Shown here: positions 4,754 to 56,825 of the stretch, in pieces
How positions within the stretch are numbered: position 1 is the first letter of the stretch
Layout of the letters: each line of letters starts with the position of its first letter
Source of the DNA: an uncultured bacterium
Lineage (GTDB): Bacteria > SAR324 > NAC60-12
Direction of reading: 5' to 3'
Length of the DNA: 64,000 nucleotides
Assembly (NCBI GenBank): GCA_965662845.1
Contig: CBFIJD010000007.1
Location: 15,904-79,903 of the forward strand
Notes under the pieces: model-generated
What the model was told of the DNA's origin: nothing
Databases searched by the model: none
What the model saw: only the letters and a program-made list of their open reading frames with translations
Position numbers and translations under genes: made by a program

Positions 4754-4782
4754 CTCGGAGGCCCTAAACCTTGCAGAAAGCC

Positions 4783-5127: not shown

Positions 5128-5163
5128 GAGGACTCCAACGAGAGGAAAAAAACGGGGAGAGGG

Positions 5164-10031: not shown

Positions 10032-10136
10032 GAGGCCTCGCCAAAGAGTACGACCGCGCTCAGGAGCCGCGAAGAGAAAACAAAGCTCAACACGTTCTTA
10101 CGGGCGCCCCAAACAATCAAGTAACAGGAGACAATT

Positions 10137-10592
10137 TTGTCAGATTCTTTGACTCACGTAGAAATTCACACGGATGGGGCTTGTTCTCCGAACCCTGGCA
10201 ACGGGGGCTGGGCTGCGGTTCTGCTAATGGGGGAACACCGCCGCGAAATCTCAGGAGCCGAGGCCAACACCACCAACAACCGCATGGAGTTGATCGCGGC
10301 CATCCGTGCGCTCCAAGCGCTGAAGCGCCCTTGCCAAGTCACCCTGTACACTGACTCCCAGTATCTCAAAAACGCGTTCACACAAAAGTGGCTGGAGAAC
10401 TGGCAACGCAATGGATGGCGCACAAAAGGCGGTAAGGGGAAGGTGCTCAACCAAGATTTGTGGCAGGAGCTGCTGCTGCTCACGGCAACGCACCACGTCG
10501 AGTGGAAGTGGGTAAAAGGGCACGCAGGGCACCCTGAAAACGAACGCTGCGACGAACTTGCCGTCGCCGCTCGGAAAACGTTGGTCGAGTGA
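10137..10592 (+). CDS. rnhA: Ribonuclease HI
   Basis: Contains [38 protein letters not shown] and TDSQYL...[15 protein letters not shown], consistent with the RNase H catalytic residues. The start codon is TTG 10137, with an AGGAGA Shine-Dalgarno sequence 5 nt upstream. Confidence 0.88.
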
Positions 10593-10594
10593 TG

Positions 10595-13357
10595 TCAGGA
10601 GGGGAGCACGTGCGAGGCCATCTCCTCGTGGCTCGTCACGACGCTGGCGATGGGCAAGCGAATCTCGAAGGTAGTGCCTTTGCCCACTTCGCTTTCACAA
10701 CGGATGGTGCCTTTGTGCTGCTTGAGAATGTTCAGGCTAATCGACATGCCTAAGCCGGTGCCTTTGCCCGGCGGCTTCGTTGTGAAGAACGACTCAAAAA
10801 TCTTCTCTCGCACTTCTGGAGGAATCCCGCTGCCCGTATCGGCAAACTGGACGACGACCCCGTCTGCTTCCACAAAAGTCCGCACGGTCAATTTTCGCAC
10901 AGAGCGCTCTTCCATTGCGTCGCGCGCGTTATTGCACAGGTTGGTGAAGACCTGTTCGAGCTGAATGTCGTTCCCCATCACCATGGGGAGTTCAGGGGTC
11001 AACTCACGCTGTAGCGCTGCGCTGATTTTTGTGAGTTGCGGCTCAATCAAGAGGAACGTGTTTTCCAGCAGCTGGTTGATGTTTTGCGGCTGGAGGTCGT
11101 TATTGTCACTGCGGCGACTGTAGTTACGCATGTGGTCGATAATTGCTGTGCAGCGCTGCACCATCAATTTGATGCGCTCGTAGGATTCCTCTGTGTTGAC
11201 TTCCCGCCCCAGTTTGCTGGCCATCTCTAGATTGCTGAGCGTCATGTTGATCCCACCCAACGGCGATTTGAGTTCGTGCGCAATCCCAGAGGTCATCTCG
11301 CCGACCACCGCAAGTTTTGCCGACTGCACCAACATGTTCTGGGTGTCTTGCAGCTCTTGGAGCACGTTGCGGAGATCTAAGGTCACGCGGGCCAGCTGCA
11401 GGTGAGACTGAATCCGCGCGAGCAGCTCTTGACGCGAAAACGGCTTTGTTAAGTAGTCATTGGCGCCGCAGCGGAAGCCTTCCACGATGTCTTCAGGGCG
11501 GTCTTTGGCGGTCAGCAAAATCACGGGTAAGTCGGTGGCGTTGTGCGTTTTGCGAATGTGGCTACAGACTTCATAGCCCGACAGGTGGGGCATCATCACG
11601 TCCAACAAAATCAGTTGCGGCTTTTGTCGCTCCAGCATCTCCAGCGCTTGCCTGCCGTCAATCGCTACCTGTATTCGATAGCCCTGCATGCTCAGCTGAT
11701 TCTTCAGAACTTGGCGATTGACGGGCTCATCGTCGACCACGAGGATCGTGACATCCCCGACGTCACTGAGTTCCACAGCGATCGCCTCCTCTGCGTTGTC
11801 TGCGGCAGTGCTCTTTGTGGGGAGAGAGACCGGCGTAGAGGGCTGGGCCCAGCCCTCTTCTGACATCGCTGGGGGCCCCATCGCCTCCTCGACGAGCCCC
11901 ACCCTGAGGTCGCTCTCTGTGGCCTCATGGGAAAAGGAGCGTGGCAACGTGAAGTAGAAGGAGGAGCCTTTGCCGACTTCTGACTCTACGCGCATGCTTC
12001 CCCCGTGAATTTCCACGAACTGCCGCGTTACGCTGAGCCCTAAGCCGGTGCCGCCGTACTGCCTCGACGTGGAGGCGTCTGCTTGCTGAAACTCTTCAAA
12101 AATCGACTCGAGCTTGTCGGCTGGGATGCCAATGCCGCTGTCATGCACGCCAAACTCAATCTCCTGCTCGTAAACGGTTGCGCTGAGCCGAACTTCGCCT
12201 TCTGCGGTGAACTTGACCGCGTTGCCCAACAAATTCAGTAAAATCTGCTGGATGCGGTTGTCGTCACCATCTACCAGCGGGAGCTCCTCGGGCAAGTCGT
12301 GACGCAGTGTCAGCTCTTTGCCTTCCAGCAGAGGGCGCAGCAGCGGCAGCACGGTGTTGGACAACTTACGCACATCGACGGGGCGGTGCGCGATCTCTAG
12401 GTTGCGATTCTGCAATTTGGAGAAGTCTAAGATGTCATTCACCAAGCTGGAGAGGCGCCGCCCGCTCGCGATGATCATCTGGAGGTTTTCTTTTGCTTCT
12501 GGTGTGACGGGGCCAGCCACGCCTGCGGTTAAGGATTCGGCGAGACCAATGATTCCATGCAGCGGTGTGCGCAATTCGTGAGAGGTGTTCGCCAAAAACT
12601 GACTTTTGGCGGCGCTAGCGGCTTCCGCTTGTTCCTTCGCTTCTCGCAGCGCTTCTTGGGTTGCCCGCTCTTGGGCCTGCATCGCTTGAATGTTCTCGGC
12701 CATCTGGTTGAAAGCGCGCGCCGTGTCTTGAAGCTCGTCTTTCTTTTCAGAGACGGGAATGCGGTGCGACCAGTCGCCTTCGGCAATTTTACCGGAGGCG
12801 TCCTGCAATTTGGTGAGGTGACGGGTGAGATATATGCCGAACAGCAAGGAGATGGTCGCCGACAACAGCAGCTCGACGAAAGCGATCACTAAGGTTCGGT
12901 CTCGAGCTTGAAGAATGGCAGCTTCAATTTTGGTGGTTGAGAAGCCCATCTCTACCCGCACGAGGGGAACCGCGCTCTCGTAGACGGTAGACTCGGTGTC
13001 AAAGACGCTGTCGGTCAACTCATTGAAACTCAGGCCGATGTCGCTGGAGAACGGCTTTTCGAGGCGCTGCACGTCTCCGCCCTCGGCGAGGGTTTCTCCG
13101 TGCGCAATCACGCGCGCATACACGACGCCTTCGTTGCGCAACACATCTTGCACCGCGCTCTCGAGGGTTGCGAGGTCAAATGAGAGCGCGGCGTCTTTCG
13201 TCATATTGGCGAACAGCTGGGCTGCGGTCTGGCTGCTACGCACGAGCTCCTGCTCGTGGGATGTCCGCAGCGAGTATAGGCTGTTCCAAATCAGCACAGA
13301 CAGCGTCAGCGTCTCAATCAGCGCAATACCAAGGATCGTCTTCAGTCGAAAGGACAT
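10595..13357 (-). CDS. Hybrid sensor histidine kinase (920 aa). Its architecture is TM-periplasmic-TM-HAMP-HisKA-HATPase-REC followed by a second HisKA-HATPase.
   Basis: First kinase core: H-box SHELRTPLHGI and a G-box GGTGLGLSVTRQF. Receiver domain: ILVVDDEPVNRQVL...LLDVMMP...ILLTAKD. Second kinase core: H-box AHELKSPLGGI, N-box NARDAMEE, and DTGSGIP...GKGTGLGMSIS. The whole stretch is a single ORF. Confidence 0.85.
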   Translation of the reverse strand: MSFRLKTILGIALIETLTLSVLIWNSLYSLRTSHEQELVRSSQTAAQLFANMTKDAALSFDLATLESAVQDVLRNEGVVYARVIAHGETLAEGGDVQRLEKPFSSDIGLSFNELTDSVFDTESTVYESAVPLVRVEMGFSTTKIEAAILQARDRTLVIAFVELLLSATISLLFGIYLTRHLTKLQDASGKIAEGDWSHRIPVSEKKDELQDTARAFNQMAENIQAMQAQERATQEALREAKEQAEAASAAKSQFLANTSHELRTPLHGIIGLAESLTAGVAGPVTPEAKENLQMIIASGRRLSSLVNDILDFSKLQNRNLEIAHRPVDVRKLSNTVLPLLRPLLEGKELTLRHDLPEELPLVDGDDNRIQQILLNLLGNAVKFTAEGEVRLSATVYEQEIEFGVHDSGIGIPADKLESIFEEFQQADASTSRQYGGTGLGLSVTRQFVEIHGGSMRVESEVGKGSSFYFTLPRSFSHEATESDLRVGLVEEAMGPPAMSEEGWAQPSTPVSLPTKSTAADNAEEAIAVELSDVGDVTILVVDDEPVNRQVLKNQLSMQGYRIQVAIDGRQALEMLERQKPQLILLDVMMPHLSGYEVCSHIRKTHNATDLPVILLTAKDRPEDIVEGFRCGANDYLTKPFSRQELLARIQSHLQLARVTLDLRNVLQELQDTQNMLVQSAKLAVVGEMTSGIAHELKSPLGGINMTLSNLEMASKLGREVNTEESYERIKLMVQRCTAIIDHMRNYSRRSDNNDLQPQNINQLLENTFLLIEPQLTKISAALQRELTPELPMVMGNDIQLEQVFTNLCNNARDAMEERSVRKLTVRTFVEADGVVVQFADTGSGIPPEVREKIFESFFTTKPPGKGTGLGMSISLNILKQHKGTIRCESEVGKGTTFEIRLPIASVVTSHEEMASHVLPS

Positions 13358-37654: not shown

Positions 37655-38191
37655 ATGGTCATTTCCCGTCCACTCCAGCTTCCTCGCACCGAAGACATCC
37701 ACGAAGAGAACCTTGTGCCGGTGGTTCGCCAACTTGCCAGTGCGGTGAGTGAACTGACGGACGTACAGAACAGCCGCGACATGCAGCTCGTCAACGCGAT
37801 TGGCGACGTCAAAACAGAGGTGAAAGGCTTGCGCAAAGAGTTTGAAACTTCCCGCAAGGACTCGAACGCTCGCCTGGATCAAACGAACAGCCGCTTAGAT
37901 CAAACGAACAGCCGTCTGGAAGAGACGAACAGCCGCCTAGATCAAACCAACAGTCGTCTGGATCAAACGAACCAGCGCCTTGACAACCTGCATGACGACT
38001 TTGGTCAACTCCGCGCAGAGTTCGAAGGCTTTCGCTCCGACGCGAACCAGCGTCTGGATCAAACGAACCAGCGTCTGGACCAAACGAACAGCCGTCTGGA
38101 CCAAACGAACCAGCGTCTGGAGAACCTAGAGCACTCACAGTCCGAGATGGTCGAGTTGCTCAAAATGATCGCTCACAACACCTCGAAGTGA
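37655..38191 (+). CDS. Heptad-repeat (Lpp-like) coiled-coil protein with about 10 tandem xRLDQTN heptads. No signal peptide is evident.
   Basis: The protein contains ARLDQTN SRLDQTN SRLEETN SRLDQTN SRLDQTN QRLDNLH ... QRLDQTN QRLDQTN SRLDQTN QRLENLE. The QRLDN motif resembles the Braun lipoprotein heptads. Confidence 0.6.
   Translation: MVISRPLQLPRTEDIHEENLVPVVRQLASAVSELTDVQNSRDMQLVNAIGDVKTEVKGLRKEFETSRKDSNARLDQTNSRLDQTNSRLEETNSRLDQTNSRLDQTNQRLDNLHDDFGQLRAEFEGFRSDANQRLDQTNQRLDQTNSRLDQTNQRLENLEHSQSEMVELLKMIAHNTSK
37867..38130 (+). repeat. Imperfect in-frame 21-bp tandem repeats (consensus AGCCGTCTGGATCAAACGAAC) in two blocks, 5+1 and 3+1 units
   Basis: Read directly from the sequence. The units differ mainly at synonymous positions (ctg/tta/cta, acg/acc). 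Confidence 0.85.
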
Positions 38192-42486: not shown

Positions 42487-43314
42487 ATGTCCCGCTCTCG
42501 CTGGCTCGGATTTCTCATCTTTTGCGGATTTCTTGGATTATCCACCCAACTTCTGGCGGCTCCCTCTGCCGAGCTGTGGCCCCGCTGGGAGGCGCACAAT
42601 TCGAGCGCCTCAGCACAGATCGACCATACGCCTTGGGACGAGTTTCTGTCCCGCTTTCTGGACGCCAACACGGCCTCTGGCATTCACCTGATGCGCTACG
42701 CGCAAGTGGACGCAGCCTCGCGTCAGCGACTGCAACGCTACCTGCAACAGTTACAAAACACGCCGATTTCGCAGTTCAACCGCGACGAACAGATGGCGTT
42801 CTGGATCAATCTCTACAACGCCCGCACCGTCGAGTTGATTCTGCAGGAAGCTCCGGTTTCTTCGATTACCGACATTTCGTTTAGCCTCTTCAGCTTTGGG
42901 CCGTGGGGCGAAGAGCTGCTGACCGTCGAGAACGAAAGGCTCTCGCTAGACGACATCGAGCACCGCATCTTGCGCCCCATCTGGAGAGACCCACGCATTC
43001 ACTACGCGGTGAACTGCGCCAGCCTCGGGTGCCCCAACTTGCAACCCAAAGCCTTCACCGCGGCGACCTTAGAAGCGCAGCTCGAACAAGCCGCCCGCGA
43101 GTTTGTGAACCACCCCCGCGGGGTCCGCTTTGAAGGCGAAGCCTTAATCCTCTCCAAAATTTACGATTGGTTTCAGGAAGATTTTGGGGCTCACGAAGCG
43201 GACGTCCTCCGCCACCTGGTGCTCTATGCCGAACCAGAGTTGGCCGAACGCTTGCGGTCTTTCGAGGGAGAGATCGACTACGAATATGACTGGAATCTCA
43301 ACGAGGAGCGCTGA
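42487..43314 (+). CDS. DUF547 domain-containing secreted protein
   Basis: A signal peptide is followed by AFWINLYNARTVELIL...HYAVNCASLGCPNL, which I recognise as the DUF547 signature. Its TGA stop sits 1 nt before the next gene's ATG. Confidence 0.6.
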   Translation: MSRSRWLGFLIFCGFLGLSTQLLAAPSAELWPRWEAHNSSASAQIDHTPWDEFLSRFLDANTASGIHLMRYAQVDAASRQRLQRYLQQLQNTPISQFNRDEQMAFWINLYNARTVELILQEAPVSSITDISFSLFSFGPWGEELLTVENERLSLDDIEHRILRPIWRDPRIHYAVNCASLGCPNLQPKAFTAATLEAQLEQAAREFVNHPRGVRFEGEALILSKIYDWFQEDFGAHEADVLRHLVLYAEPELAERLRSFEGEIDYEYDWNLNEER

Positions 43315-43315
43315 C

Positions 43316-45508
43316 ATGAACCCCTTTCTGCAAGACCGCCAACGCTGGGTGCTGGGCCTCGTAGTGTTGCTCGTCGGGCTGTTTTTTGTGCTGGATCTGC
43401 CAAATGTGCTGACGTTGGAAAACCTCAAAGCCTCGCGGGAAGGCTTCCGAGAGTCTTATGCTGCGAATCCCTTTTGGTTTGGGATGCTCTACTTCGTGGG
43501 ATACGTGATCGTGACGGCGTCTTCGGTGCCGGGGGCTGCCGTGCTGACGCTCGCGGGAGGCGCGGTGTTTGGGCTGGTCGGCGGCACGCTGCTGGTCTCG
43601 TTCGCCAGCACGATCGGCGCAACGTTGGCGATGCTCGCGGCGCGATTTCTGTTATATCCCAGCGTAGAAAAACGCTTTGGGGACTCCTTGCGGCGCCTCA
43701 ACCGTGGCGTTGAGCGGGAGGGAGCCTTCTACTTGTTCACGTTGCGGTTGGTTCCGATTGTGCCGTTTTTCGTCATCAATTTGGGCATGGGGCTCACCAA
43801 AATGCCGGCTCGCACCTTTTATTGGGTCAGCCAGCTGGGCATGTTGCCCGGAACCATCGTCTATGTGAACGCTGGCGCTGAGCTTGGACAAATCGAATCG
43901 ATGGGCGACATCTTGTCTGGCAGCCTGCTGTTTTCCTTCGCCTTGTTGGGGATCTTCCCTCTTGTCGCTAAGAAAGGAGTGGAAGCCTATCGCAAGCGTC
44001 GCGCCCCGCAGCCTACGTCTACGACCTCAAGCAGCTCCGCCCAAGTGAACGCTGCGCCTGCCGTACACACACCGCGACCTTACGATTACAACCTCGTCGC
44101 GATTGGCGCGGGCGCGGCGGGTCTCGTCACGACGTACATGGGCGCCGCGTTGCAAGCTCGCGTGGCGTTGATCGAGAAGCACAAAATGGGCGGTGACTGC
44201 TTGAACACCGGCTGCGTGCCCAGCAAAGCGCTATTGAGCAGCGCCAAAGCCGCACAACAGATGCGAAACGCCGCGAAATACGGGCTCGAACCCGTCGAGG
44301 TGCAGGTGAACTTTGCGCAGGTGATGACGCAGGTGCAGCAAATCATTCAGCGCATCGAGCCGCACGACAGCGTCGAGCGTTACACGGCGCTTGGCGTGGA
44401 GTGTCTGCAAGGCGAGGCGTTCGTGCATTCGCCCAACGAGGTCGAAGTCTTTGGACAAAAGCTCACCACGAGTCGTCTCGTGATCGCGACCGGAGCACGT
44501 CCGTTTGTCCCGCCGATTGTCGGTCTGGAACGAGTCCCGTTCTCGCATTCGGACAACATCTGGGAGCTGCGTCAGCTGCCTCGGCGTTTGGTCGTGATCG
44601 GTGGTGGTCCGATCGGTTGCGAGCTAGCGCAGGCGTTTCAACGTCTTGGGTCACAGGTCACGTTGCTCGAGCGAGGCCCTGACATCCTGCCCAAAGAAGA
44701 CCGAGACATGGCGACCTTTGTTCAGCGCCGCATGGAAGCCGACGGCGTGCGCATTTTGACCGGTGTGACTCTGGAGAACGTCGCGCGCGTTGGCGACGTG
44801 ACGCACGTACACCTGCAGGGGCACGACGGGCAAGTGGTCGCCTGTGAGCACATCCTCGTGGCGGCGGGGCGCAAAGCCAACACAGACGGTTTTGGGCTGG
44901 AAGCGCTAGGCGTGGAGAAAAACCCAGACGGGACGCTGTGGGTGGACGCTCACTTACAGACAAGCGCGGCGGGGATCTATGCGTGTGGCGACGTGGCGGG
45001 ACCGTATCAGTTCACGCACATGGCCGGGCACCAAGGGTGGTATGCGTCGGTCAACGCTCTGTTCTCGCCGCTGAAGCAGTTCGCGGTGGACTACTCGGTC
45101 GTGCCTTGGTGCACCTACACCGATCCAGAGTTGGCGCATGTCGGCCTGAGCGAGACGATGGCGCAAGCGCAGAACATCCCCTACGAGGTCACGGTCTTCC
45201 CGCTGAACGACCTTGACCGCGCCATCACCGACCGCACAGATGAGGGCCAAATCAAAGTGTTGACGAAGCCCAACTCTGACAAAATCCTCGGCGCGACCAT
45301 CTGTGGGCATCACGCGGGAGACTTGCTGACGGAGTATATTCTGGCGATGAAGCACGGTCTCGGGCTCAACAAAATTCTCGGGACGATTCATCCGTACCCA
45401 ACGCTCGCGGAAGGCAACAAGTTGCTCGCTGGGGCGTGGCGTCGAAACCACAGCCCAGCGTGGCTGATGCCGTATCTCAAAGCCTTTCACACGTGGAAGC
45501 GGAGCTGA
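43316..45508 (+). CDS. Fusion of an N-terminal DedA/TVP38 (SNARE-associated) membrane domain with a C-terminal FAD-dependent pyridine nucleotide-disulfide oxidoreductase (mercuric reductase/dihydrolipoamide dehydrogenase-like)
   Basis: The DedA region is VPGAAVLTLAGGAVFGLVGGTLLVSFASTIGATLAML...RLVPIVPF. The FAD region is LVAIGAGAAGLVTTYMGA...GGDCLNTGCVPSKALL (a redox CxxxxC), the NAD-binding motif is VVIGGGPIGCELAQAF, and the C-terminus is ...HPYPTLAEG. Confidence 0.8.
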   Translation: MNPFLQDRQRWVLGLVVLLVGLFFVLDLPNVLTLENLKASREGFRESYAANPFWFGMLYFVGYVIVTASSVPGAAVLTLAGGAVFGLVGGTLLVSFASTIGATLAMLAARFLLYPSVEKRFGDSLRRLNRGVEREGAFYLFTLRLVPIVPFFVINLGMGLTKMPARTFYWVSQLGMLPGTIVYVNAGAELGQIESMGDILSGSLLFSFALLGIFPLVAKKGVEAYRKRRAPQPTSTTSSSSAQVNAAPAVHTPRPYDYNLVAIGAGAAGLVTTYMGAALQARVALIEKHKMGGDCLNTGCVPSKALLSSAKAAQQMRNAAKYGLEPVEVQVNFAQVMTQVQQIIQRIEPHDSVERYTALGVECLQGEAFVHSPNEVEVFGQKLTTSRLVIATGARPFVPPIVGLERVPFSHSDNIWELRQLPRRLVVIGGGPIGCELAQAFQRLGSQVTLLERGPDILPKEDRDMATFVQRRMEADGVRILTGVTLENVARVGDVTHVHLQGHDGQVVACEHILVAAGRKANTDGFGLEALGVEKNPDGTLWVDAHLQTSAAGIYACGDVAGPYQFTHMAGHQGWYASVNALFSPLKQFAVDYSVVPWCTYTDPELAHVGLSETMAQAQNIPYEVTVFPLNDLDRAITDRTDEGQIKVLTKPNSDKILGATICGHHAGDLLTEYILAMKHGLGLNKILGTIHPYPTLAEGNKLLAGAWRRNHSPAWLMPYLKAFHTWKRS

Positions 45509-47232: not shown

Positions 47233-47634
47233 ATGTCTGAAGAATTGGAAGCCCTACTCGAACGCCAGCAACGCCAACATGAACGTCTTGAAGAACTAAA
47301 GCAACGCACCCCACTGTCCACTTCTGGAGACGACGCTTTCCGCTATCAGGACGCCAGCTATGATCTTCACCAGCGAGACGACGAAGTGTTTCTCAGCATC
47401 GACGTTCCTGGGGTGTTGGAAGAATCGGTCGCTTTTGACTTTCAGGACGCCGCCTTCTTCGTGACGGGTGAGTTCCCCGCCTCTGAACCAGACCACGCGG
47501 TCTGTGTGCAACAAAACCGCCTACGGGGGCCGTTTCGGTATCAATTTTTGTTGCCTCGCCCGGCCCAGCGGTTTGAATCGTATCAAGAGAATGGTGTTTT
47601 GTATTTACGCATTCAGTTGCAGCCTGAGGAATGA
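47233..47634 (+). CDS. Hsp20/alpha-crystallin family small heat-shock protein
   Basis: The alpha-crystallin domain pattern is ...DEVFLSIDVPGVLEESVAFDFQDAAFFVTGE...RLRGPFRYQFLLPRPA...ENGVLYLRIQL. Confidence 0.7.
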   Translation: MSEELEALLERQQRQHERLEELKQRTPLSTSGDDAFRYQDASYDLHQRDDEVFLSIDVPGVLEESVAFDFQDAAFFVTGEFPASEPDHAVCVQQNRLRGPFRYQFLLPRPAQRFESYQENGVLYLRIQLQPEE

Positions 47635-47637
47635 CTT

Positions 47638-47784
47638 ATGCCCAGAATCTTACGTAACTACTTGATTAGTTTTTTGATTATCGGCACTTTGCTGGGCATC
47701 ATTCACGCGTTGGACTTGTATTTCAACCCTCGTGAAGCCACATCCCCAACTCCGGAACCAACGGCAACCGTCCCGCAAAATTAG
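47638..47784 (+). CDS. Possible 48-aa small membrane protein MPRILRNYLISFLIIGTLLGIIHALDLYFNPREATSPTPEPTATVPQN
   Basis: The ORF sits between hsp20 and fxsA, and its TAG stop directly abuts the fxsA ATG. It has a single predicted TM helix. It is below the 60-aa cutoff of the ORF track. Confidence 0.3.
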   Translation: MPRILRNYLISFLIIGTLLGIIHALDLYFNPREATSPTPEPTATVPQN

Positions 47785-48159
47785 ATGACAGCTATCGTTT
47801 GGATCGCGCTCAGTCTGCTCTTGCTGATCGAGACGCTGCTGCTGAGCGTCCTTGCGCGCTCTTTGGGCAACCTCAGCTTGTTTCTGTTGAGCGGAGTGAC
47901 GGCTGGAGCGGGCTTGTGGTTGATGAGAGGCGAGGATTTTTCGCTCTGGACTCTGGTCGAGACTGAACTTCAGCAGCGGCGGCTGCCGACTACAGAGCTC
48001 TGGGACGCTCTGGTGCTCTGGCTGGCTGGAGGTCTTCTGGTGGTGCCCGGCTTGCTCTCGGATGCCATCGGCATCGTGCTCACGCTTCCCGACATTCGCT
48101 CCACGTTGGTTGAGCGCTTGGAGCACTATTTTCGCCAACGCTGGCGGGCACCACTCTAA
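47785..48159 (+). CDS. fxsA: FxsA family cytoplasmic membrane protein
   Basis: MTAIVWIALSLLLLIETLLLSVLARSLG...LVVPGLLSDAIGIVLTLP is the characteristic FxsA sequence. Confidence 0.8.
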   Translation: MTAIVWIALSLLLLIETLLLSVLARSLGNLSLFLLSGVTAGAGLWLMRGEDFSLWTLVETELQQRRLPTTELWDALVLWLAGGLLVVPGLLSDAIGIVLTLPDIRSTLVERLEHYFRQRWRAPL

Positions 48160-48185: not shown

Positions 48186-49961
48186 TTGCGCAATCTATGG
48201 CTCTCTATAGCGTTCTGGGCAATCTGTGCGCTCTACAGCCCTGCCCTCGCTGCGACACCAGCTGCGGGAGAGGGACCCGACGGCGCCGAGGTCTTGCAGC
48301 AACTGGAAGAAGAGTTTTTGCGACAACAAGCGGCCGAAGCTGCCGCCGCGTTAGCACAAGCTCGTGCAGCAGCATCCGATGCAGAGGCAGTGCGTTTTTA
48401 CAAAGAGGCTGCTGAGAGAGGAAACGCTGAGGCTCAACTAGAGCTTGGTTTGCTCTATCGGCAACGTCGAGGCATTCAAGAAGAATTTCGTGGCAAAACC
48501 CGCTTTTCGATTGATCCCAAAGCGTTCGACTTTTTGTTCGCAAGCAAGATGGATCAACAAGCCTTTCGCTGGATCAAGGCCGCCGCCGACCAGGACATCG
48601 CCGCCGCTCAATATTATCTCGCACAGTTCTATCAACGCGGCATCGGCGCTCCCCGCGACAGCGAACGCGCCGAAGAGCTGTTTGCGCAGGCTGCAGCAAA
48701 GGGCTTTACCCCAGAAGACGCCGTTGATTTACTGAAAGTTGAGTATGATGGGGTGGTGCAAGTTATCTCCGAACCAGAATTGGAAGTCGCCGAACTCTCC
48801 GAAGTGGAGGCTGCCGAAGTGCAAATCATTAGCACCACTCCCGACAAAACAGAGATCGTCAGCGGCAACTTTACGGTCACCATTAGCGCGTTCAGCCCCC
48901 TCCGCTCCATCGTCATCAACGAACAAACGCAACCACTCGATAATGGCAGCTTCGATGTCACCTATTCTCTGCCCTACGAACTCGAGATTGGAGAAAACTA
49001 TTTTGACCTAGAAGTCGAGACCGAAGCCACCCGCATTGAGCGCGAAATTATTATCTTTCGCGAGACCGAAGCCATCAAAAAACCCACCCCCAAGCCCCCC
49101 TTTCAACTCATCACCATTGTGGGACACACCGAAGACACAAACAGCGGCAGCGCGCCCGACGGCGCAGAAAAAATTCGAGCGCTCAAAAGCAACATGGTGC
49201 TCGTGCCGAGCTACTCCCATTACATCAACTATCGCAACACGTTTGACATCAAAGGGCTCATCACCACAGATCGCCAGTGGATGGAGTCCCAGCGCAGCAA
49301 AGAGATCCTCTTGCGTCAGGTCTCTTTCGAGTGGGTGCGCAAGTATACCGCGCTGGGCGACCTCACGACTGGAGTGGGAACCAACCAACTGGGGCTCCGC
49401 GATGTGCCTGAGACCAGCCCCCTCCGTGACGGCTGGAGCTCAGACTTCCGCAAAGTCTCCGCAGACTCCTTTCTGTTCGGAAAATTCAAGCTCGAGACAG
49501 ACAACGAGGTGACTTGGCAAGGAAAACTAGAGCACAAGTGGAAAAACGCGGAAGGCTCCACAACGGACGATGGCGTGGCAGACAAACTCGAACTCGGGAG
49601 TGATTTCTCCATCAACGATTGGAAATACGGCGGGAAACTCAGCTATACGCTCACAGACATCCAAGATGACAGCAAAGACAAAACCGATCTCAAAGCCTCT
49701 TTCGAGGTGGGCGTCCCCACAAAACCCGTCGCCCTCAAAATCGGGCACGACTGGTCTCAATCTGAAAAACGTCTCGAAAATTCGGACGGTGTACGGCAGA
49801 AAGATCGCAAAAATGTCACGAGCTTAGGGTTCACTTATCCCTATGCCCCGTGGCTCATCATCAATTTTTCCCGCAAGTTAGAACAAGCAACTTCGAACCT
49901 AGCGAACAAAGATTACTGGAAATACCAAACTGCGCTACAGCTCACCGTCATCTACAAATAA
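48186..49961 (+). CDS. Secreted Sel1-repeat (TPR-like) protein with a large C-terminal domain
   Basis: A signal peptide is followed by the Sel1 repeats AAERGNAEAQLELGLLYRQRRG and AADQDIAAAQYYLAQFYQRGIGAPRD...AQAAAKG. The C-terminal roughly 380 aa are beta-rich (alternating hydrophobic positions, ends ...LQLTVIYK). Confidence 0.6.
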   Translation: MRNLWLSIAFWAICALYSPALAATPAAGEGPDGAEVLQQLEEEFLRQQAAEAAAALAQARAAASDAEAVRFYKEAAERGNAEAQLELGLLYRQRRGIQEEFRGKTRFSIDPKAFDFLFASKMDQQAFRWIKAAADQDIAAAQYYLAQFYQRGIGAPRDSERAEELFAQAAAKGFTPEDAVDLLKVEYDGVVQVISEPELEVAELSEVEAAEVQIISTTPDKTEIVSGNFTVTISAFSPLRSIVINEQTQPLDNGSFDVTYSLPYELEIGENYFDLEVETEATRIEREIIIFRETEAIKKPTPKPPFQLITIVGHTEDTNSGSAPDGAEKIRALKSNMVLVPSYSHYINYRNTFDIKGLITTDRQWMESQRSKEILLRQVSFEWVRKYTALGDLTTGVGTNQLGLRDVPETSPLRDGWSSDFRKVSADSFLFGKFKLETDNEVTWQGKLEHKWKNAEGSTTDDGVADKLELGSDFSINDWKYGGKLSYTLTDIQDDSKDKTDLKASFEVGVPTKPVALKIGHDWSQSEKRLENSDGVRQKDRKNVTSLGFTYPYAPWLIINFSRKLEQATSNLANKDYWKYQTALQLTVIYK

Positions 49962-49980
49962 AGTTTCCACAGGACTCCCT

Positions 49981-51012
49981 ATGCCGTTTTTTCAAAACAC
50001 ACAGACTTGGTTCTTCACGCTGCTCTTCAGTCTGGTGTTCTGCTCCATGCTCGCCCCCGCGCAAGCGCAGCAGCGCGGACAACTCGTCCTCGACCAAGGG
50101 CTCGTGAAAGTCAGCAACGGCAGCCGCGTTCGCATCTACAACGAACCAGGCACCACCGTGCTCATCGAAGTGGGAGATCAAATTCACACGGCTCGCGACT
50201 CGCAAGTGCGACTGGTCCTTAGCAGCGGAGATGAAATTGTGAGCTTGGGAGCCAACACGGTCTTTCAAGTGGACGCAGCAACCGCAGAGGATAGCAGCAC
50301 CCGCCTGCTAACAGGCGATCTTAAATTTGAAATCAACCCCAATCGCCCACTCGTGAATGGCAAAAAGCGCCAGTTTAAGATCCGCACCGTCACCGCCGTT
50401 GTAGGGGTCCGAGGCTCCGAAGGCGATGTCGGGTTCGATCCCTCCACAGGAGAGACCTCCGTCGTAGCGGCCGCTGGAGACATTTATGTGGTTCCCCCCG
50501 AACTGGAAGGAGACACGCTCGCCGAAATTTCGATTCCACCTGGGCAAGACGTGAGCTTGACCCAAGAATCGATCAAGCTACCCGGCGCTGACAAACCCGT
50601 CTCTAAAGAGGAAGCCGTCGCTCAGACACGCGAATCGAACAAACAAAAACAAGAAGAACCGCAACCGCAAAGCGAACCACAAGCCGGCGATGGCGCGCAA
50701 GCTCAACCGCAGCAAGAGAGCGGTGGAGAATCATCAGCGCCTCCCGCTGAAGGGAGTGGAGAGGCCGCCCCAGCATCAGATGAAGCCCCAGCTGCAGATG
50801 CTCCGGCCCCGATCGAAGAACCAGAAGCGGTCGAGGTCGAAGCCGTCGAAATCGAAGAAGTCGAACTCCCCGACCTCACCGAGATTGAAGAACTGGCTGC
50901 AGAAGCTGAAGAGGCCGCCGACGAAGCTCTCGACGCCGTAGAAGAGGCCATCGACGAAGACCTCATCGAGAGTATCCGCGAGATCAACATCGAGCTGAAC
51001 TATACGGAGTAG
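49981..51012 (+). CDS. Secreted FecR-domain protein with an acidic low-complexity C-terminal tail
   Basis: A signal peptide is followed by the FecR-like beta-sandwich pattern GQLVLDQGLVKVSNGSRVRIYNEPGTTVLIEVGD...VFQV...LTGDLKFEINP...KIRTVTAVVGVRGSEGDV. The last roughly 130 aa are E/A/P-rich (EEPEAVEVEAVEIEEVELP...). Confidence 0.55.
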   Translation: MPFFQNTQTWFFTLLFSLVFCSMLAPAQAQQRGQLVLDQGLVKVSNGSRVRIYNEPGTTVLIEVGDQIHTARDSQVRLVLSSGDEIVSLGANTVFQVDAATAEDSSTRLLTGDLKFEINPNRPLVNGKKRQFKIRTVTAVVGVRGSEGDVGFDPSTGETSVVAAAGDIYVVPPELEGDTLAEISIPPGQDVSLTQESIKLPGADKPVSKEEAVAQTRESNKQKQEEPQPQSEPQAGDGAQAQPQQESGGESSAPPAEGSGEAAPASDEAPAADAPAPIEEPEAVEVEAVEIEEVELPDLTEIEELAAEAEEAADEALDAVEEAIDEDLIESIREINIELNYTE

Positions 51013-51013
51013 C

Positions 51014-52213
51014 TTGGACCCTGCCTCTATTCCGCTCTCCAGCGAGAGTGTCGAGAGACTGCTGGAGAGCAAATTGCGCTCAGAGCTCGCCTCCTTACGG
51101 CGGTCTTCTCCTCTCGACCTCCCTGATTTGCACATGGAAGAATCCTTCCACGACTCCTCTTGGCAAGTCACGATCACCGAAATGGCGGAGTTGCTGCGGC
51201 GGCTGCATCTGATGTTTTCTCTCTCCTCAGAAGTGATCGCCCAGATGGCCGCTTATCCCTTTTTGCGTTTTTGGACGCAATCGGTTCGAGAACAGCTTCA
51301 CGCGACGCGAGACTTACAGTTCCAAACCTCTGGCAGCACCGGACACCCTAAGTTTCAGCAGCACACGTGGGCTGCGCTAGGGCAAGAAGTTGACTTTCTC
51401 ACCACGTTGTTTCCTGCCACCAAACGCATTGTGCGAGCGGTGCCTTGTCACCACATCTATGGGTTCCTCTTCACCCTGTTGCTGCCACAACGGCTGGCGG
51501 TGCCGACCGTCGAAGCGCGAACATGGAGCCCCAGCAAGCTGCAGCAAGCCCTTCAGCCAGGCGATCTGCTCGTTTCACATCCTCTGCACTGGCAGAGTTT
51601 CCAGCGCTCGGTGATGACCGTACCCGCTGGGGTCACCGGAGTGACCTCGACCGCGCCCTTTTCCTCTGCAACTTGGCAGCAACTTCAGCAACAAGGTCTG
51701 CAGCAAATCGTGGAAGTGTATGGCTCCACGGAGACCGCCGGCGTCGCGTGGCGGGAACAACCTGAGGACTGGTTCACGCTCTTTCCCTACTGGAATTGGG
51801 ATCCTTCTGCTAACGTGCCGACGTTGCGTCGCGCGGAGGAAGCCGCTGCGTTTCCGTTGATGGACCAAATCGAGCTGCACCCGCAGGACCACCGCCGCTT
51901 TCGTCCGCTCCGGCGCAGAGATGAAGCTGTGCAGGTCGCTGGACACAACGTCTTTCCGAGTCACATCGCGGATCGTCTCAGAGAGCATTCACTGGTGGAA
52001 GACTGCGCCGTCCGCTTGATGCGCCCAGACGAAGGCAGCCGCCTCAAAGCGTTTGTCGTCGGCACCGGCAATCGCGTCTTGGAACCTGCCGAGCAGCAGT
52101 CTCTGCGCGCGTGGATCGCGTCTCAACTCCCAGCCCCGCAACAACCCAAATCCCTGCGTTTTGGCTCGGAACTTCCCCGCAACGACGCCGGCAAACTCAC
52201 CGACTGGACATGA
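51014..52213 (+). CDS. Compact adenylate-forming enzyme (AMP-dependent CoA ligase, about 399 aa, p-coumaroyl-CoA ligase-like)
   Basis: The AMP-binding core is FQTSGSTGHPKFQQHTW, followed by YGSTETAG and a C-terminal ...ELPRNDAGKLTDW Lys motif. It lacks the roughly 150-aa N-terminal extension of FadD-type ligases. It begins 2 nt after the FecR-like gene's stop. Confidence 0.65.
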   Translation: MDPASIPLSSESVERLLESKLRSELASLRRSSPLDLPDLHMEESFHDSSWQVTITEMAELLRRLHLMFSLSSEVIAQMAAYPFLRFWTQSVREQLHATRDLQFQTSGSTGHPKFQQHTWAALGQEVDFLTTLFPATKRIVRAVPCHHIYGFLFTLLLPQRLAVPTVEARTWSPSKLQQALQPGDLLVSHPLHWQSFQRSVMTVPAGVTGVTSTAPFSSATWQQLQQQGLQQIVEVYGSTETAGVAWREQPEDWFTLFPYWNWDPSANVPTLRRAEEAAAFPLMDQIELHPQDHRRFRPLRRRDEAVQVAGHNVFPSHIADRLREHSLVEDCAVRLMRPDEGSRLKAFVVGTGNRVLEPAEQQSLRAWIASQLPAPQQPKSLRFGSELPRNDAGKLTDWT

Positions 52214-53790
52214 CCCCCATCTCTCTTCAAATCGCCGACCAGCTGCCCATCGCGCAAGTGCGGAATTGGCTCTGGAACCCGCCACAACTGCAACTCTCTG
52301 CTGAAGCGGCCGACCAACTCCGTCAGGCTGAAGCCTTTCTGAACCGACAAATTCAGGCCCGCAAGCTGATTTATGGGGTGACGACCGGCTACGGCCCGCT
52401 GGCCTCCGAATATCTGGAGCCCGCGCTCAGCACCGAGTTGCAACGACGCCTGATCTACCACCTCGCGAGTGGCGTCGGAGAGCCCTTCTCACCAGAAGAA
52501 TCCCGCGCCATTTTGTTGGCCCGCTTGCAAAACTTGTTGCAAGGGCACTCCGCCGTGCGTGTGGAGGTCGTGGAGCAAATGATCGCCTGCTGGAACCAAG
52601 GCCTGCTGCCGGTCATGCCAGAGCTAGGAACCGTCGGGGCGAGCGGAGACCTCACCCCGCTGGCCCACTTGGCGCTGGCGTTGATGGGCGAAGGCGAGTT
52701 TTGGGAGAACGCCCACCGCATCTCTGCGCGGGAAGCGCTCGCCGACTACGGTCGCACCCCGCTGGAACTCCACGCTAAAGACGGACTGGCGCTGGTGAAT
52801 GGTACTTCCGCGATGACGGGTCTCTCCCTATGGAACTCGGCTTGGTTCCATCGGGCGCTGGATTGGGCGCTACGGCTCTCGTTTGCCTATGCAGAGATCT
52901 ATCGCGCTCGCCGCGAAGCCTTCTCGCCGCGTGTCGGGGAAGCCCGCCGGCACCCAGGACAAGTGGCGATCCATCAGCAGCTATGGAGCTGGGCCCAGCA
53001 GAGCCAGCGACTGCAACCATACGCCGGAAAGGTCGCCAACCTGCCGCGCGCAGACACTCCGACAGATGGCATCTGGCACGCACAAGCGCTCCTGCAAGAT
53101 CCCTATTCGATTCGCTGCTTGCCGCAAATTTTTGGCGCCATCACAGATGTGCTGGCGTTTCACGACACGACAGTAGAGCGCGAGTTCAACGCGACGACAG
53201 ACAACCCGCTGGTTTTTGCGGAAGGCGAAGAGATCTTGCACGCGGGCAACTTTTACGGACAACACGTCGCGTTTGCCGCAGATGCGCTCTGCAACGCGGT
53301 GCTGAAGTTGGCAATTCTGGCCGAACGACAAGTCGCTCGCATCACAGATGTCCAGCTCAGCCCGCCCGAGCTACCAGCTTTCTTGCAACCACATCGGCTG
53401 GGATTGAACAGCGGCTTTATGGGCGCGCAAGTCACGGCGACGGCGTTGGTCGCGGAGCTGCGCACGCACGCGATCCCAGCGTCCGTCCAAAGTGTCGCGA
53501 CCAACGCGAACAATCAGGACGTCGTGAGTATGGGGACGATCGCCGCGCGCAAGGTCGCGCGGTTGCGTCCACGGGTCTTTGAGCTGCTGGCGGTGGAAGC
53601 GCTCGTGCTGGCGCAAGCCTTAGAGTTGTGCGGGGTTGAGAAAACGTCGGCGGGCTTCAGCCCTGTGAGTCAGCAGATTTGGGAGGTGGTGCGTCAAGAG
53701 TCGGAGTTTCTGAGGGAAGATCGCCCGCTAGCGCCGGATCTCCAACGCGTTGCGGGGCGATTACAAAACACTGCTGCGAGTGAGGCGTAG
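52210..53790 (+). CDS. Aromatic amino-acid ammonia-lyase (MIO-dependent, HAL/PAL/TAL family), with the tyrosine ammonia-lyase-type His-Leu selectivity switch
   Basis: The MIO-forming triad sits in GTVGASGDLTPLAHLA (Ala-Ser-Gly). The selectivity position reads RLIYHLASGVGEP, i.e. H-L before the xSGVG block; my recollection is that HAL has S-H and PAL has F-L there. The start overlaps the ligase stop as ATGA. 526 aa. Confidence 0.7.
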   Translation: MTPISLQIADQLPIAQVRNWLWNPPQLQLSAEAADQLRQAEAFLNRQIQARKLIYGVTTGYGPLASEYLEPALSTELQRRLIYHLASGVGEPFSPEESRAILLARLQNLLQGHSAVRVEVVEQMIACWNQGLLPVMPELGTVGASGDLTPLAHLALALMGEGEFWENAHRISAREALADYGRTPLELHAKDGLALVNGTSAMTGLSLWNSAWFHRALDWALRLSFAYAEIYRARREAFSPRVGEARRHPGQVAIHQQLWSWAQQSQRLQPYAGKVANLPRADTPTDGIWHAQALLQDPYSIRCLPQIFGAITDVLAFHDTTVEREFNATTDNPLVFAEGEEILHAGNFYGQHVAFAADALCNAVLKLAILAERQVARITDVQLSPPELPAFLQPHRLGLNSGFMGAQVTATALVAELRTHAIPASVQSVATNANNQDVVSMGTIAARKVARLRPRVFELLAVEALVLAQALELCGVEKTSAGFSPVSQQIWEVVRQESEFLREDRPLAPDLQRVAGRLQNTAASEA

Positions 53791-53800
53791 CGGGGAGACG

Positions 53801-54436
53801 TTAGCGATTCGGCTGCGGAGTAAAACGTAAGTACGGTTTGATCTCCGTGAAACCTTTGGGGAATTTGTCAGCGGCTTCGCTGTTGCTCAAGGACGGAACA
53901 ACGATGCAGTCATCGCCATTTTGCCAGTCTGCTGGAGTCGCGACCGCGTGTTGATCTGTGAGCTGTAGCGAGTCGATTACGCGTAAGATCTCGGCGAAGT
54001 TGCGCCCTGTAGAAGCCGGGTATGTCATCGTCAGACGCACTTTCTTCGCTGGGTCAATGATGAAAACGGAGCGAACGGTCAGTGTGCTGTTGGCGTTCGG
54101 ATGAATCATGCTATACAAATTCGCGATGTGCCGGTCAGGGTCGGCGATGATGGGATAGTTCATCTCTGTCGCCTGCGTTTCGTTGATGTCTTTGACCCAG
54201 CCTTCGTGTTCATCTAAAGAATCCACGCTAATCGCAAGCATCTTCACATTCCGCTGTTCAAACTCTCTCCGCAGCTTTGCGGCTGTACCCAATTCGGTGG
54301 TGCAAACCGGTGTGTAGTCTTTGGGGTGCGAAAATAAAATTCCCCAGCTGTTCCCCAGCCACTCGTGAAATCTCAATTCTCCGAAGGTTGTCTGCGCGCT
54401 AAAGTCGGGGGCTGTGTCGCCAAGTTGCATCGTCAT
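53801..54436 (-). CDS. 1-Cys peroxiredoxin (Prx6-like)
   Basis: Contains LGDTAPDFSAQTTFGELRFHEWLGNSWGILFSHPKDYTPVCTTELG, the PVCTTE peroxidatic Cys motif. The track ORF starts at 54472. Confidence 0.85.
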   Translation of the reverse strand: MTMQLGDTAPDFSAQTTFGELRFHEWLGNSWGILFSHPKDYTPVCTTELGTAAKLRREFEQRNVKMLAISVDSLDEHEGWVKDINETQATEMNYPIIADPDRHIANLYSMIHPNANSTLTVRSVFIIDPAKKVRLTMTYPASTGRNFAEILRVIDSLQLTDQHAVATPADWQNGDDCIVVPSLSNSEAADKFPKGFTEIKPYLRFTPQPNR

Positions 54437-54535
54437 TCCTGCTCCTGAGTGGTTGGGGTTGGTGTGGCTCATGCTCTGCTGAGCCGAGGGATAGTCTGCA
54501 TGATCAAGGGAACGCGAGCCGGCGATGGCAGGCTG

Positions 54536-55302: not shown

Positions 55303-56319
55303 TCAGTTGCGGCTGATCGCGACTGGCTCTGTTCGCACTTTCAGACCATTCGCAGCGCCTTTGAGGGGAGATACAATCAGGCGCTCTCCCTCTTCTAAGC
55401 CTGCGGCCAGAAAGACTTCGTCATCTTCCACTCGCAACACATCCACTGGGCGAATCTCCAAAAGGTCTTGTTGTGCGACCCAAACAGTGTTGGCGTCGCG
55501 CAAAGCCGTCGCTGGAATCACAATCACATTTTCCAGTCGTCGCGCTGGAATCAAGACATCGACAAAGGTCCCCATAAAGAGCGGCAGAGCGCCGTTGTCT
55601 CCAAAACGGTTCAAATGAAAGGGATCGTTCACGGTCAACACAAGCTGCGTCATCAGCCCCTGCGGGGTCACTTCAGGCAGAAAGCGCTGCACAGAGGCAT
55701 CCCAAATGCCGATCCGCTCGCCATACCGGAGCCGAACGGTCGCGGACATGCGCAGGCTGTCTGCGTTCGGATCAAACCCCAACCACTCCAAATCCTGCAT
55801 AGGCAAATCGACCACCACCTCGGCTTGGTCGCTGCCAACCAGCACTCCTAATTGGGCGCCTGGCGACACAAATTGCCCCAGGTCCACGGCTCGCTCTTGC
55901 AAGACGGCATGGAAGGGGGCTCGCAGCGCGGTGTAGTCCAGATTGCCGCCATTCATTGGTTGCAGCGTCACGAGCAAATCGCCTTCTTTGACAAAAGCGC
56001 CTTCGCGGAGTTGGGGGCTAATCCAGTTCACAATTCCGGAGATTTGCGGTGTGAGCAGCACTCGCTGCGCCGGTTGCACCCGGCCGTTTAGCTCCAGTTG
56101 AACTTGTCGCGTCGTGCGCATCACCGTGACGGTCTCGACAAGTTTGCCTTCGTAGGGCTGGGCTTTCTTCTCAGCTTCAGGGCTTGTGAAGACCAGCCCC
56201 GCCGTCGCCGCGCTGCCGAGCAATAAAATGAAAATGGGGAGCCAGAGTTTCAGGTTCGTCAGCCACGACCAGCGAGTCGGACGACGAAGGAGGTTTTGAG
56301 GGCGCATCAGTCGGGACAA
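55303..56319 (-). CDS. Efflux transporter periplasmic adaptor (membrane-fusion protein, HlyD/RND-MFP family). It is solitary: no pump gene is adjacent.
   Basis: An N-terminal TM anchor is followed by the biotinyl/lipoyl-like hairpin region ...LTPQISGIVNWISPQLREGAFVKEGDLLVTLQP and beta-barrel domain patterns. Confidence 0.6.
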   Translation of the reverse strand: MSRLMRPQNLLRRPTRWSWLTNLKLWLPIFILLLGSAATAGLVFTSPEAEKKAQPYEGKLVETVTVMRTTRQVQLELNGRVQPAQRVLLTPQISGIVNWISPQLREGAFVKEGDLLVTLQPMNGGNLDYTALRAPFHAVLQERAVDLGQFVSPGAQLGVLVGSDQAEVVVDLPMQDLEWLGFDPNADSLRMSATVRLRYGERIGIWDASVQRFLPEVTPQGLMTQLVLTVNDPFHLNRFGDNGALPLFMGTFVDVLIPARRLENVIVIPATALRDANTVWVAQQDLLEIRPVDVLRVEDDEVFLAAGLEEGERLIVSPLKGAANGLKVRTEPVAISRN

Positions 56320-56825
56320 TAATACTGGTGGATCGGTTGGTCGTCAGGCAGGGCTTGCAACGGAATCCATTCGCGGCGCGTGTCCCGCAGAAACTCGACG
56401 AGGGTTTCGGGCATTTTTTCATTGCGTCCAATCAGCGTCAATGTCTGATCTGAACAATTATACAGTCGCAGTTGATGGTTCCATCCATCGTCGATTTGAA
56501 TGGTGCTCAGCCCCGCGAGGACAATCTTGGGGGCATTCGCTGGGGTGGGAAACGTTCGCGTGAGGGCCGACTGATCATACACCAGCAGGGTCGTCGGAGG
56601 TGCAAGCCAGTGAGCAGGGTTGTAAAAGTCTCCATCTCGGACAGAGTAGATCTCGACCAAAGTCGCGGGGCCGTTCTGCCCCTGTCGCACCTGCTCCCGA
56701 ATGCGGTCAGCCCACTGGTATCCTGTGGCGATAGTGTACGTCCATCCAAGGATAATCAGAAGCAGTATGACCCACGCGGTCGTGCGGGTGTTGAGACGGT
56801 GTAACCAGTGGATGAAAGAAGACAT
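56307..56825 (-). CDS. Hypothetical membrane-anchored protein (172 aa)
   Basis: It has an N-terminal TM helix (AWVILLLIILGWTYTIA). It overlaps the MFP gene start by 13 nt. I recognise no domain. Confidence 0.4.
   Translation of the reverse strand: MSSFIHWLHRLNTRTTAWVILLLIILGWTYTIATGYQWADRIREQVRQGQNGPATLVEIYSVRDGDFYNPAHWLAPPTTLLVYDQSALTRTFPTPANAPKIVLAGLSTIQIDDGWNHQLRLYNCSDQTLTLIGRNEKMPETLVEFLRDTRREWIPLQALPDDQPIHQYYCPD

Follow-up and report, generated by a model that had tools for sequence, protein, structure and literature searches.

A pcl-tal gene pair of the photoactive yellow protein chromophore-supply type adjoining a conserved Sel1-FecR block in an uncultured SAR324-like bacterium

The pcl and tal genes found in the 64,000-nt stretch of DNA analysed here (the window) are unremarkable examples of the gene pair known from the supply of the photoactive yellow protein (PYP) chromophore, and they stand beside unrelated genes for predicted exported proteins. 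The pair corresponds to the pcl and tal members of the classic pyp-pcl-tal cassette and probably acts as a chromophore-supply pair whose acceptor, with PYP or a PYP-domain sensor as the best candidate, is encoded elsewhere in the genome. In the proposed route, the tyrosine ammonia-lyase (TAL) would deaminate L-tyrosine to p-coumaric acid, which the compact ligase would adenylate and convert into p-coumaroyl-CoA. The thioester would then be passed to the distant acceptor, most probably to the conserved cysteine of the PYP or PYP-domain sensor. Immediately upstream of the two genes is a conserved envelope gene pair, Sel1-FecR, from which they are probably read through. This adjacency is peculiar to the host lineage and implies no shared function; the tight spacing is best regarded as a lineage-specific accident of genome packing and not as a new system.

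The four genes are all located on the forward strand. The gene for the Sel1-repeat protein (48186..49961, 591 aa, TTG start) is followed by that of the FecR-domain protein (49981..51012, 343 aa), by pcl, coding for a compact 4-coumarate-CoA ligase of the PYP-activation type (51014..52213, 399 aa, TTG start), and by tal, coding for a putative MIO-dependent tyrosine ammonia-lyase (52210..53790, 526 aa counted from the ATG). These open reading frames and their domain calls (Sel1, FecR, compact ANL ligase, MIO lyase) had been proposed in a first-pass annotation of the sequence and agree with Pfam. The 4-nt ATGA overlap of the pcl stop and tal start, which points to translational coupling, was also described correctly; the two preceding gaps, then given as 20 and 2 nt, are actually 19 nt (Sel1/FecR) and 1 nt (FecR/pcl). 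Tight packing extends upstream of the four genes, as the Sel1 start lies 26 nt from the end of FxsA in a forward-strand block made of HSP20, a 48-aa ORF and FxsA (47233..48159; Pfam HSP20 and FxsA, L001). Downstream, a 1-Cys peroxiredoxin gene on the reverse strand (53801..54472; Pfam AhpC-TSA and 1-cysPrx_C, JGI contig) is convergent with tal. An assembly chimera is excluded because the same four-gene arrangement recurs, with about 100% identity, on a Logan contig and on JGI contigs of two samples. A scan for internal promoters and terminators gave no convincing candidate, and shuffled sequence yielded at least as many hits. The third-position GC content (GC3) of pcl (z = 0.1) and tal (z = 1.1) is typical of the genome, and no mobile-element signature was found around the 3.5-kb stretch covering pcl, tal and the peroxiredoxin gene, neither as notable flanking direct or inverted repeats nor as atypical GC3. 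The 1-nt FecR/pcl junction is unusually tight for a chance juxtaposition; this spacing and the genome-typical GC3 of both genes were counted against the preferred reading.

The two upstream proteins were assigned to their families by Pfam, the Sel1 protein reaching 31.8 bits against Pfam Sel1 (just over the cutoff of 30.7) and the FecR protein 37.4 bits against Pfam FecR. Both are predicted to be exported: as first proposed, each displays a hydrophobic N-terminus ending in an AxA motif (ALA|ATP and AQA|QQR, read from the sequence), and the FecR tail is indeed acidic and of low complexity. A beta-rich C-terminal domain had also been proposed for the Sel1 protein. A middle beta-sandwich and long antiparallel strands over the C-terminal 160 residues are predicted, but the model, built from a 9-sequence alignment, is a poor one (mean pLDDT 52). 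The Sel1 protein shares its repeats with Sel1-repeat envelope proteins, and the FecR protein resembles signal-peptide FecR-domain surface proteins in possessing a FecR-fold domain without an anti-sigma N-terminus; membership is claimed in neither case. A weak match of the FecR protein to Leptospira Lsa33 (E = 1e-4) is far below the cutoff and is likewise not taken as membership.

Homologues of the Sel1 protein were grouped in eight clusters at 61-70% identity, one of which has 342 member sequences, and all those examined are preceded by HSP20, a small ORF and FxsA. The HSP20-48-aa ORF-FxsA order is kept in six of the related loci (L082-L085, L087 and L089). In a sister clade (L086, L088, L089 and L090), the conservation covers the entire block of HSP20, small ORF, FxsA, Sel1 and FecR. 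The FecR N-domain is 55-79% identical in relatives and its C-terminus, ...IREINIELNYTE, corresponds to ...IRSIQIQLNYQE in L089. The 3.5-kb stretch is absent between FecR and recO in all four members of the sister clade: in L086 and L089 the FecR stop is only 32 nt away from the convergent recO stop, and L088 and L090 display the same gene order with neither pcl nor tal between the two genes. A gain in the present lineage and a loss in the other are equally parsimonious because all relatives whose downstream sequence is available belong to a single clade, their RecO proteins being 92-98% identical to each other and 63-64% identical to that of the window. The peroxiredoxin gene also lies within the stretch missing from relatives, and no functional link is claimed for it. 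From this synteny, the Sel1 and FecR genes are assigned to an HSP20-FxsA-Sel1-FecR block and not to the pcl-tal module.

The functional unit of four genes put forward in the first-pass annotation is therefore unsupported, as the genes are not co-conserved in relatives. In such a unit, the exported Sel1 and FecR proteins, or some other target in the envelope, would be decorated or loaded by means of p-coumaroyl-CoA or would transmit a signal from it. The two gaps and the overlap make co-transcription likely, no convincing promoter or terminator interrupts the four genes, and no other acceptor is encoded within about 80 kb. However, relatives keep Sel1-FecR without pcl-tal, and neither Sel1 nor FecR homologues were found near ligase homologues at any of the 80 genomic loci inspected (0/80). 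The families also differ in how close their homologues are, with Sel1 at 61-70% identity against best non-self matches of 44% for the ligase and 55% for the lyase. CoA thioesters are cytoplasmic, whereas both the Sel1 and the FecR proteins carry predicted export signals. Spacing alone is uninformative, since FxsA and HSP20 are packed equally tightly upstream. A common system of the four genes is consequently considered highly improbable.

The ligase was confirmed as a compact enzyme of the PYP type. Its match to TIGR02372 (PYP-activation 4-coumarate-CoA ligase) scores 276.2 bits (E = 3.4e-82) and spans profile positions 4-385 of 386, and the next-best family only reaches 67.5 bits (E = 7e-19), a difference on which a PaaK-type identity was rejected. 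The score is nevertheless below the TIGR02372 cutoff of 334.7 and the protein is, as judged from its sequence, a divergent relative of this family rather than a certified equivalog. The Pfam AMP-binding and AMP-binding_C domains are both present, and the architecture is compact ANL with an intact adenylation core (TSGSTG loop, YGxTE, catalytic Lys near the C-terminus). All 55 columns invariant in a 25-sequence family alignment are preserved (55/55), including the TSGSTG loop and residues T105, S106, G107, S108, Y236, G237, E240, T241 and K394. Identity to known members ranges from 36 to 48%, with a best non-self match of 44%.

The lyase matches Pfam Lyase_aromatic with E = 3.8e-149, and its closest solved structure is the Rhodobacter sphaeroides TAL 2o6y (E = 1.2e-103). 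Selectivity was read at the switch position, where His-Leu denotes a TAL, Phe-Leu a PAL and Ser-His a HAL. The YHLASGVG segment of the window lyase aligns with HHLASGVG of 2o6y (His89-Leu90) and with HFLASGVG of its H89F mutant 2o78. The TAL-type call made at first reading was thereby upheld, and a histidase was rejected as the switch is His-Leu and not Ser-His. The Ala-Ser-Gly triad is intact, with GTVGASGDLTPLAH aligning with the MIO position of 2o6y, and the motifs NGTSAMTG, YSIRC and NANNQDVVS are conserved in the alignment with solved relatives. With the triad, the switch and the substrate-binding motifs all shared with the R. sphaeroides enzyme, the lyase is assigned as TAL-type by its predicted active-site residues, and the same activity is predicted. 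The protein scores higher against generic NCBIfam histidine ammonia-lyase models (459 and 447 bits, neither reaching the cutoff), a behaviour common among TALs of its group. Two further models were also below cutoff (FlxA-type TAL, 384 bits for a cutoff of 700; tyrosine 2,3-aminomutase, 395.6 bits for a cutoff of 501) and, among solved structures, the lyase matches RsTAL better than SgTAM (351 vs 307 bits). The best non-self match is 55% identical; the closest homologues fall at 50-55%, and the lyase of Persicimonas caeni (P0170) is at 52%.

The genomic context of homologues points to PYP. A pyp gene is present within 10 kb, and is mostly adjacent, at 67-68 of the 80 loci harboring a ligase homologue, and at all of those that also carry a lyase homologue (9/9). 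The closest lyase homologues belong to pyp-tal or pyp-pcl-tal operons, such as L094 (PAS126-TAL) and L096 (PAS128-PCL398-TAL531), where the order of pcl and tal is that of the window. In the Halorhodospira halophila pyp-pcl-tal operon and its relatives, as in L096 and L060 (Marinospirillum celere), pcl precedes tal with tight coupling just as in the window, and both enzymes are of the families found here. Further shared features are the TAL-type His-Leu switch and a compact ligase (about 400 aa) that TIGR02372 covers over its whole length. Unlike these operons, the window pair has no pyp within about 80 kb and abuts an unrelated FecR-domain gene; its proteins also differ from operon members by the lower identity (36-48% for the ligase, up to 55% for the lyase) and by the ligase score below the family cutoff. 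A survey of 113 pyp operons found tal in only 5% and pcl in 32% (PMC12826048), so that pcl and tal encoded apart from pyp represent a layout already documented as common.

A second context was observed for the ligase family. At six Desulfovibrionales loci without pyp, an aryl-polyene cluster takes its place, and a TIGR02372-like ligase closes a series of genes for a B12-radical SAM protein, GT2-DUF2062, an LpxL-type acyltransferase, ACP, KS and CLF; a subclade of the compact ligase family is thus embedded in these clusters. The window pair might by analogy feed a p-coumaroyl (or 4-hydroxyaryl) starter to an aryl-polyene or flexirubin-type pigment, with the KS/ACP cluster elsewhere in the genome. 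The predicted chemistry (tyrosine to p-coumarate to p-coumaroyl-CoA) is the same as that of the flexirubin starter enzymes, TAL FlxA and 4-coumarate-CoA ligase, with which Chitinophaga flexirubin synthesis starts (PMC3992019). The window ligase joins the aryl-polyene-linked clade in a midpoint-rooted tree. By neighbour-joining with 100 bootstraps, it was placed with PYP-linked ligases in 60 replicates, with the aryl-polyene-linked clade in 25 and in a mixed position in 15. However, no lyase homologue is found within 10 kb of the aryl-polyene-linked ligase loci, the nearest relatives of the window lyase are PYP-linked, and its score is far below the FlxA cutoff. The KS, CLF, ACP, acyltransferase, GT2-DUF2062 and radical SAM proteins of L073 gave no tblastn match with E < 0.5 in the window and 7.7 kb downstream of it (L091), so that, unlike in the pigment clusters, no ketosynthase, ACP or acyltransferase adjoins the pair. 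A role in pigment synthesis is hence regarded as unlikely.

The search for an acceptor was extended to about 80 kb around pcl-tal. A profile built from 68 PYP sequences was run against six-frame ORFs of the window with filters off and returned a best E-value of only 2.2, on which a PYP domain hidden in a multidomain sensor of the window was rejected; the flanks (8.3 kb upstream and 7.7 kb downstream) contain no PYP either, and no ACP or ketosynthase was found over the same 80 kb. The first-pass statement that no PYP or PKS gene lies nearby is in agreement with the analysis. Points counted against PYP supply include the lack of pyp in this region, the ligase score below cutoff and the mixed bootstraps. 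A pyp remnant between FecR and pcl was rejected, the gap being 1 nt and the FecR C-terminus conserved up to the stop.

The pair could also be an orphan left from an acquired pyp-pcl-tal cassette whose pyp was lost or never transferred. The enzymes would then merely release p-coumarate or p-coumaroyl-CoA for want of a dedicated acceptor, or would feed a different acyltransferase, for example a p-coumaroyl-homoserine-lactone synthase. The gene order is that of the L096 cassette minus its first third, the 1-nt gap ahead of pcl leaves no space for pyp, and pyp fragments do occur beside related tal genes, a PYP-like fragment being located 2 kb upstream in L098. Against this possibility, neither ORF is truncated and every family-invariant residue is present, both genes are identical across independent assemblies, and their codon composition is ameliorated to that of the genome, which suggests maintenance; the annotated parts of the window showed no LuxI-type gene. 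Such a remnant is therefore judged doubtful, and supply of a chromophore to a PYP-type acceptor encoded elsewhere is preferred.

The analysis places two genes from an uncultured, flagellated bacterium in a well-known p-coumaroyl-CoA supply route for PYP, which adds little beyond annotation. The 'PYP activation' label itself should not be applied automatically, because the aryl-polyene context recurs for TIGR02372-like ligases in Desulfovibrionales. The pair also hints that the host lineage may possess a blue-light PYP sensor; a literature search combining SAR324 with PYP returned no report of such a sensor in SAR324-like bacteria. It is considered very unlikely that pcl-tal was captured into the Sel1/FecR transcription unit and serves a purpose other than PYP (such as an envelope-associated or secreted p-coumaroyl product), or that it reveals a first PYP-type photoreceptor system of the SAR324-like group expressed with envelope and stress genes. 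The relatives of the host are labelled either SAR324 or Deltaproteobacteria.

The four plus-strand genes reported in the first-pass annotation are borne out by open reading frames and Pfam matches: a Sel1-repeat protein (48186-49961; Sel1, marginal at 31.8 bits), a FecR-domain protein (49981-51012; FecR, 37.4 bits), the compact ligase pcl (51014-52213, TTG start; AMP-binding plus AMP-binding_C) and the lyase tal (52210-53790; Lyase_aromatic, E = 3.8e-149). The Sel1/FecR and FecR/ligase gaps measure 19 nt and 1 nt, and the ATGA overlap said to couple ligase and lyase is present in the sequence. The same four-gene sequence recurs on one Logan contig and on contigs of two JGI samples, and the arrangement is therefore not an assembly artefact. 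Tight packing extends in the 5' direction, as FxsA ends 26 nt upstream of Sel1 and is itself preceded by a 48-aa ORF and HSP20. A scan returned no promoter or terminator signals above background; because intergenic space is absent, pcl-tal is probably transcribed by read-through from its two upstream neighbours.

As far as sequence and motifs go, the enzyme assignments of ligase and lyase are confirmed. The sole strong NCBIfam match of the ligase is TIGR02372 (4-coumarate-CoA ligase, photoactive yellow protein (PYP) activation family), with a score of 276 bits and a match spanning profile positions 4-385 of 386; the runner-up family reaches 67 bits, and a PaaK-like ligase was rejected on this basis. 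As the curated cutoff is 334.7, the protein is a divergent relative; in an alignment of 25 family members it shares all the invariant columns. No solved structure was found for any member of this compact ligase family. The best solved relative of the lyase is the Rhodobacter sphaeroides TAL (2o6y, E = 1.2e-103). The query lyase has YHLASGVG where the wild-type enzyme has HHLASGVG and its H89F mutant (2o78) HFLASGVG, indicating a His-Leu selectivity switch of the TAL type and ruling out Ser-His or Phe-Leu. Also conserved are the ASG triad of the MIO cofactor and the remaining substrate-binding motifs.

The proposal that the four genes form a functional unit did not survive comparison with relatives. 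Eight homologue clusters of the Sel1 protein (61-70% identity) were retrieved; the source MAGs bear the labels Deltaproteobacteria, SAR324 cluster or just 'bacterium', and every contig examined carries HSP20, a small ORF and FxsA upstream and a FecR-domain gene next downstream. All relatives found (L082-L085, L087 and L089) keep Sel1 and FecR in one conserved block with HSP20, an ORF of 48-52 aa and FxsA on the upstream side (47233-48159 in the window). A second FxsA paralogue is encoded some 5 kb before the window begins (3347-3748 of L099, the contig extending the window 5'). Many relatives' contigs break within the low-complexity FecR tail, and four metagenome loci run past it. In the sister-clade loci L086 and L089, FecR (170-1714 and 9968-11437) is followed by convergent recO (1747-2502 and 11470-12225), with 32 nt between stop codons in both, and the FecR C-terminus is conserved right up to its end (L089, ...IRSIQIQLNYQE; window, ...IREINIELNYTE). 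Synteny is otherwise intact, running from VWA, lipase, PGI, HSP20, FxsA, Sel1 and FecR to recO, a 270-aa OMP-like gene, an NHL protein, FliI, FliH and FliF; the window has an extra 3.5 kb, absent from these relatives, that holds pcl and tal together with a 1-Cys peroxiredoxin gene convergent to them. Since Sel1, FecR, RecO and FliF are 63-86% identical, a pcl orthologue would be expected far closer than the 44% of the best non-self match, which fits its absence from relatives. The relatives with downstream sequence constitute one clade (RecO 92-98% identical mutually, 63-64% to the window), pcl and tal have GC3 values usual for this genome and no repeats were found flanking the stretch; whether by gain or by loss, co-conservation of the four genes does not hold. 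Between recO and the OMP-like gene (55303-56825, minus strand) lies another extra pair: two overlapping genes of 338 aa and 172 aa with no Pfam match in the JGI annotation, missing from L089 and sister-clade locus L090, and forming a lineage-specific stretch near pcl-tal.

The company of the ligase family was surveyed in 80 loci, using one genome per species (homologues 36-47% identical). By tblastn 67 loci, and by profile search 68, have a pyp gene no more than 10 kb away, usually adjacent; all nine that also contain a lyase homologue are among them. Sel1 or FecR homologues occur in none of the 80, even at E = 1. The envelope-decoration system suggested earlier for the closely packed genes is accordingly very improbable, and the proposed novelty is not supported. 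Among the 12 loci lacking pyp, three are short contigs and six, all Desulfovibrionales (L011, L017, L057, L073, L079 and L080, about 4000-11200 in each), have the ligase as the terminal gene of an aryl-polyene-type cluster (B12-radical SAM, GT2-DUF2062, LpxL-type acyltransferase, ACP, KS, CLF, then ligase), with neither PYP nor TAL within 10 kb. The name 'PYP-activation' is misleading for this subclade of TIGR02372-like ligases. Supply of starter units to an aryl-polyene cluster elsewhere is an unlikely role for pcl-tal, no aryl-polyene component having been found in the window or 7.7 kb downstream. The tree position of the ligase varied: in 100 bootstraps it grouped 60 times with PYP-linked sequences, 25 times with the aryl-polyene clade and 15 times in mixed positions. 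The nearest lyase homologues in a 5.8-billion-protein collection are 50-55% identical (Persicimonas caeni, 52%). Those with readable surroundings show PAS126-TAL (L094, L095) and PAS128-PCL398-TAL531 (L096), the latter a pyp-pcl-tal cassette with the pcl-then-tal order of the window; a profile verified that the small PAS genes encode PYPs. In L097, pcl-TAL lies at a contig end that stops before the upstream region. L098 presents a PYP-like fragment 2 kb upstream of TAL (54% identity). This 84-aa ORF, in the stretch 3548-4000, matches the PYP C-terminal half only and may represent a pyp gene that has decayed or been split; next to it comes a gene of 496 aa that weakly matches CheW.

The acceptor was sought with a profile built from 68 PYPs against six-frame translations, all filters off. 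No PYP was found in the window (best E = 2.2), in 7.7 kb on the 3' side (L091) or in 8.3 kb on the 5' side (L099), and Pfam annotation assigned the remaining window genes to housekeeping, transport and repair functions only. The earlier statement that no PYP lies nearby thus holds over these spans, and the acceptor is encoded elsewhere or absent. Separation from pyp is normal for a PYP system: among 113 predicted pyp operons, just 5% include tal and 32% pcl, and both were concluded to lie usually elsewhere in the genome (Dohmen et al. 2025, PMC12826048). The PYP catalogue of that study has entries from 'Deltaproteobacteria bacterium' MAGs, from Bdellovibrio and from Persicimonas caeni, and none from SAR324. 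An orphan pair left by a truncated cassette, or serving another acyltransferase, would also account for the missing pyp and the cassette-like order, and is improbable to us. The pair is best described as divergent chromophore-supply genes of known type, the envelope genes next door being unrelated and the juxtaposition lineage-specific. We consider it reasonably probable that, transcribed by read-through from Sel1-FecR, TAL would convert tyrosine to p-coumarate and the ligase would form p-coumaroyl-CoA, the thioester then acylating the chromophore cysteine in a PYP, or in a sensor with a PYP domain, whose gene lies elsewhere.

The Sel1 protein gave a poor AlphaFold model (mean pLDDT 52), which suggests N-terminal helical repeats, then a small beta-sandwich around residues 212-292 and, at the C-terminus, nine long antiparallel strands. 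FecR is hypervariable: between L086 and L089 the N-domain shares only 73% identity against 98% for the adjacent RecO, the Q/E/P-rich linker length differs (343 aa in the window vs 489-514 aa in relatives), and several metagenome contigs break inside the gene. Such divergence and linker variability are typical of a fast-evolving exposed protein. Elsewhere in the window, a 178-aa protein (37655-38191) consists almost wholly of tandem RLDQTNSRL-type repeats and is probably a coiled coil, and a 774-aa protein (43184-45508) fuses a VTT/DedA membrane domain to a mercuric-reductase-like pyridine-nucleotide disulfide oxidoreductase domain.
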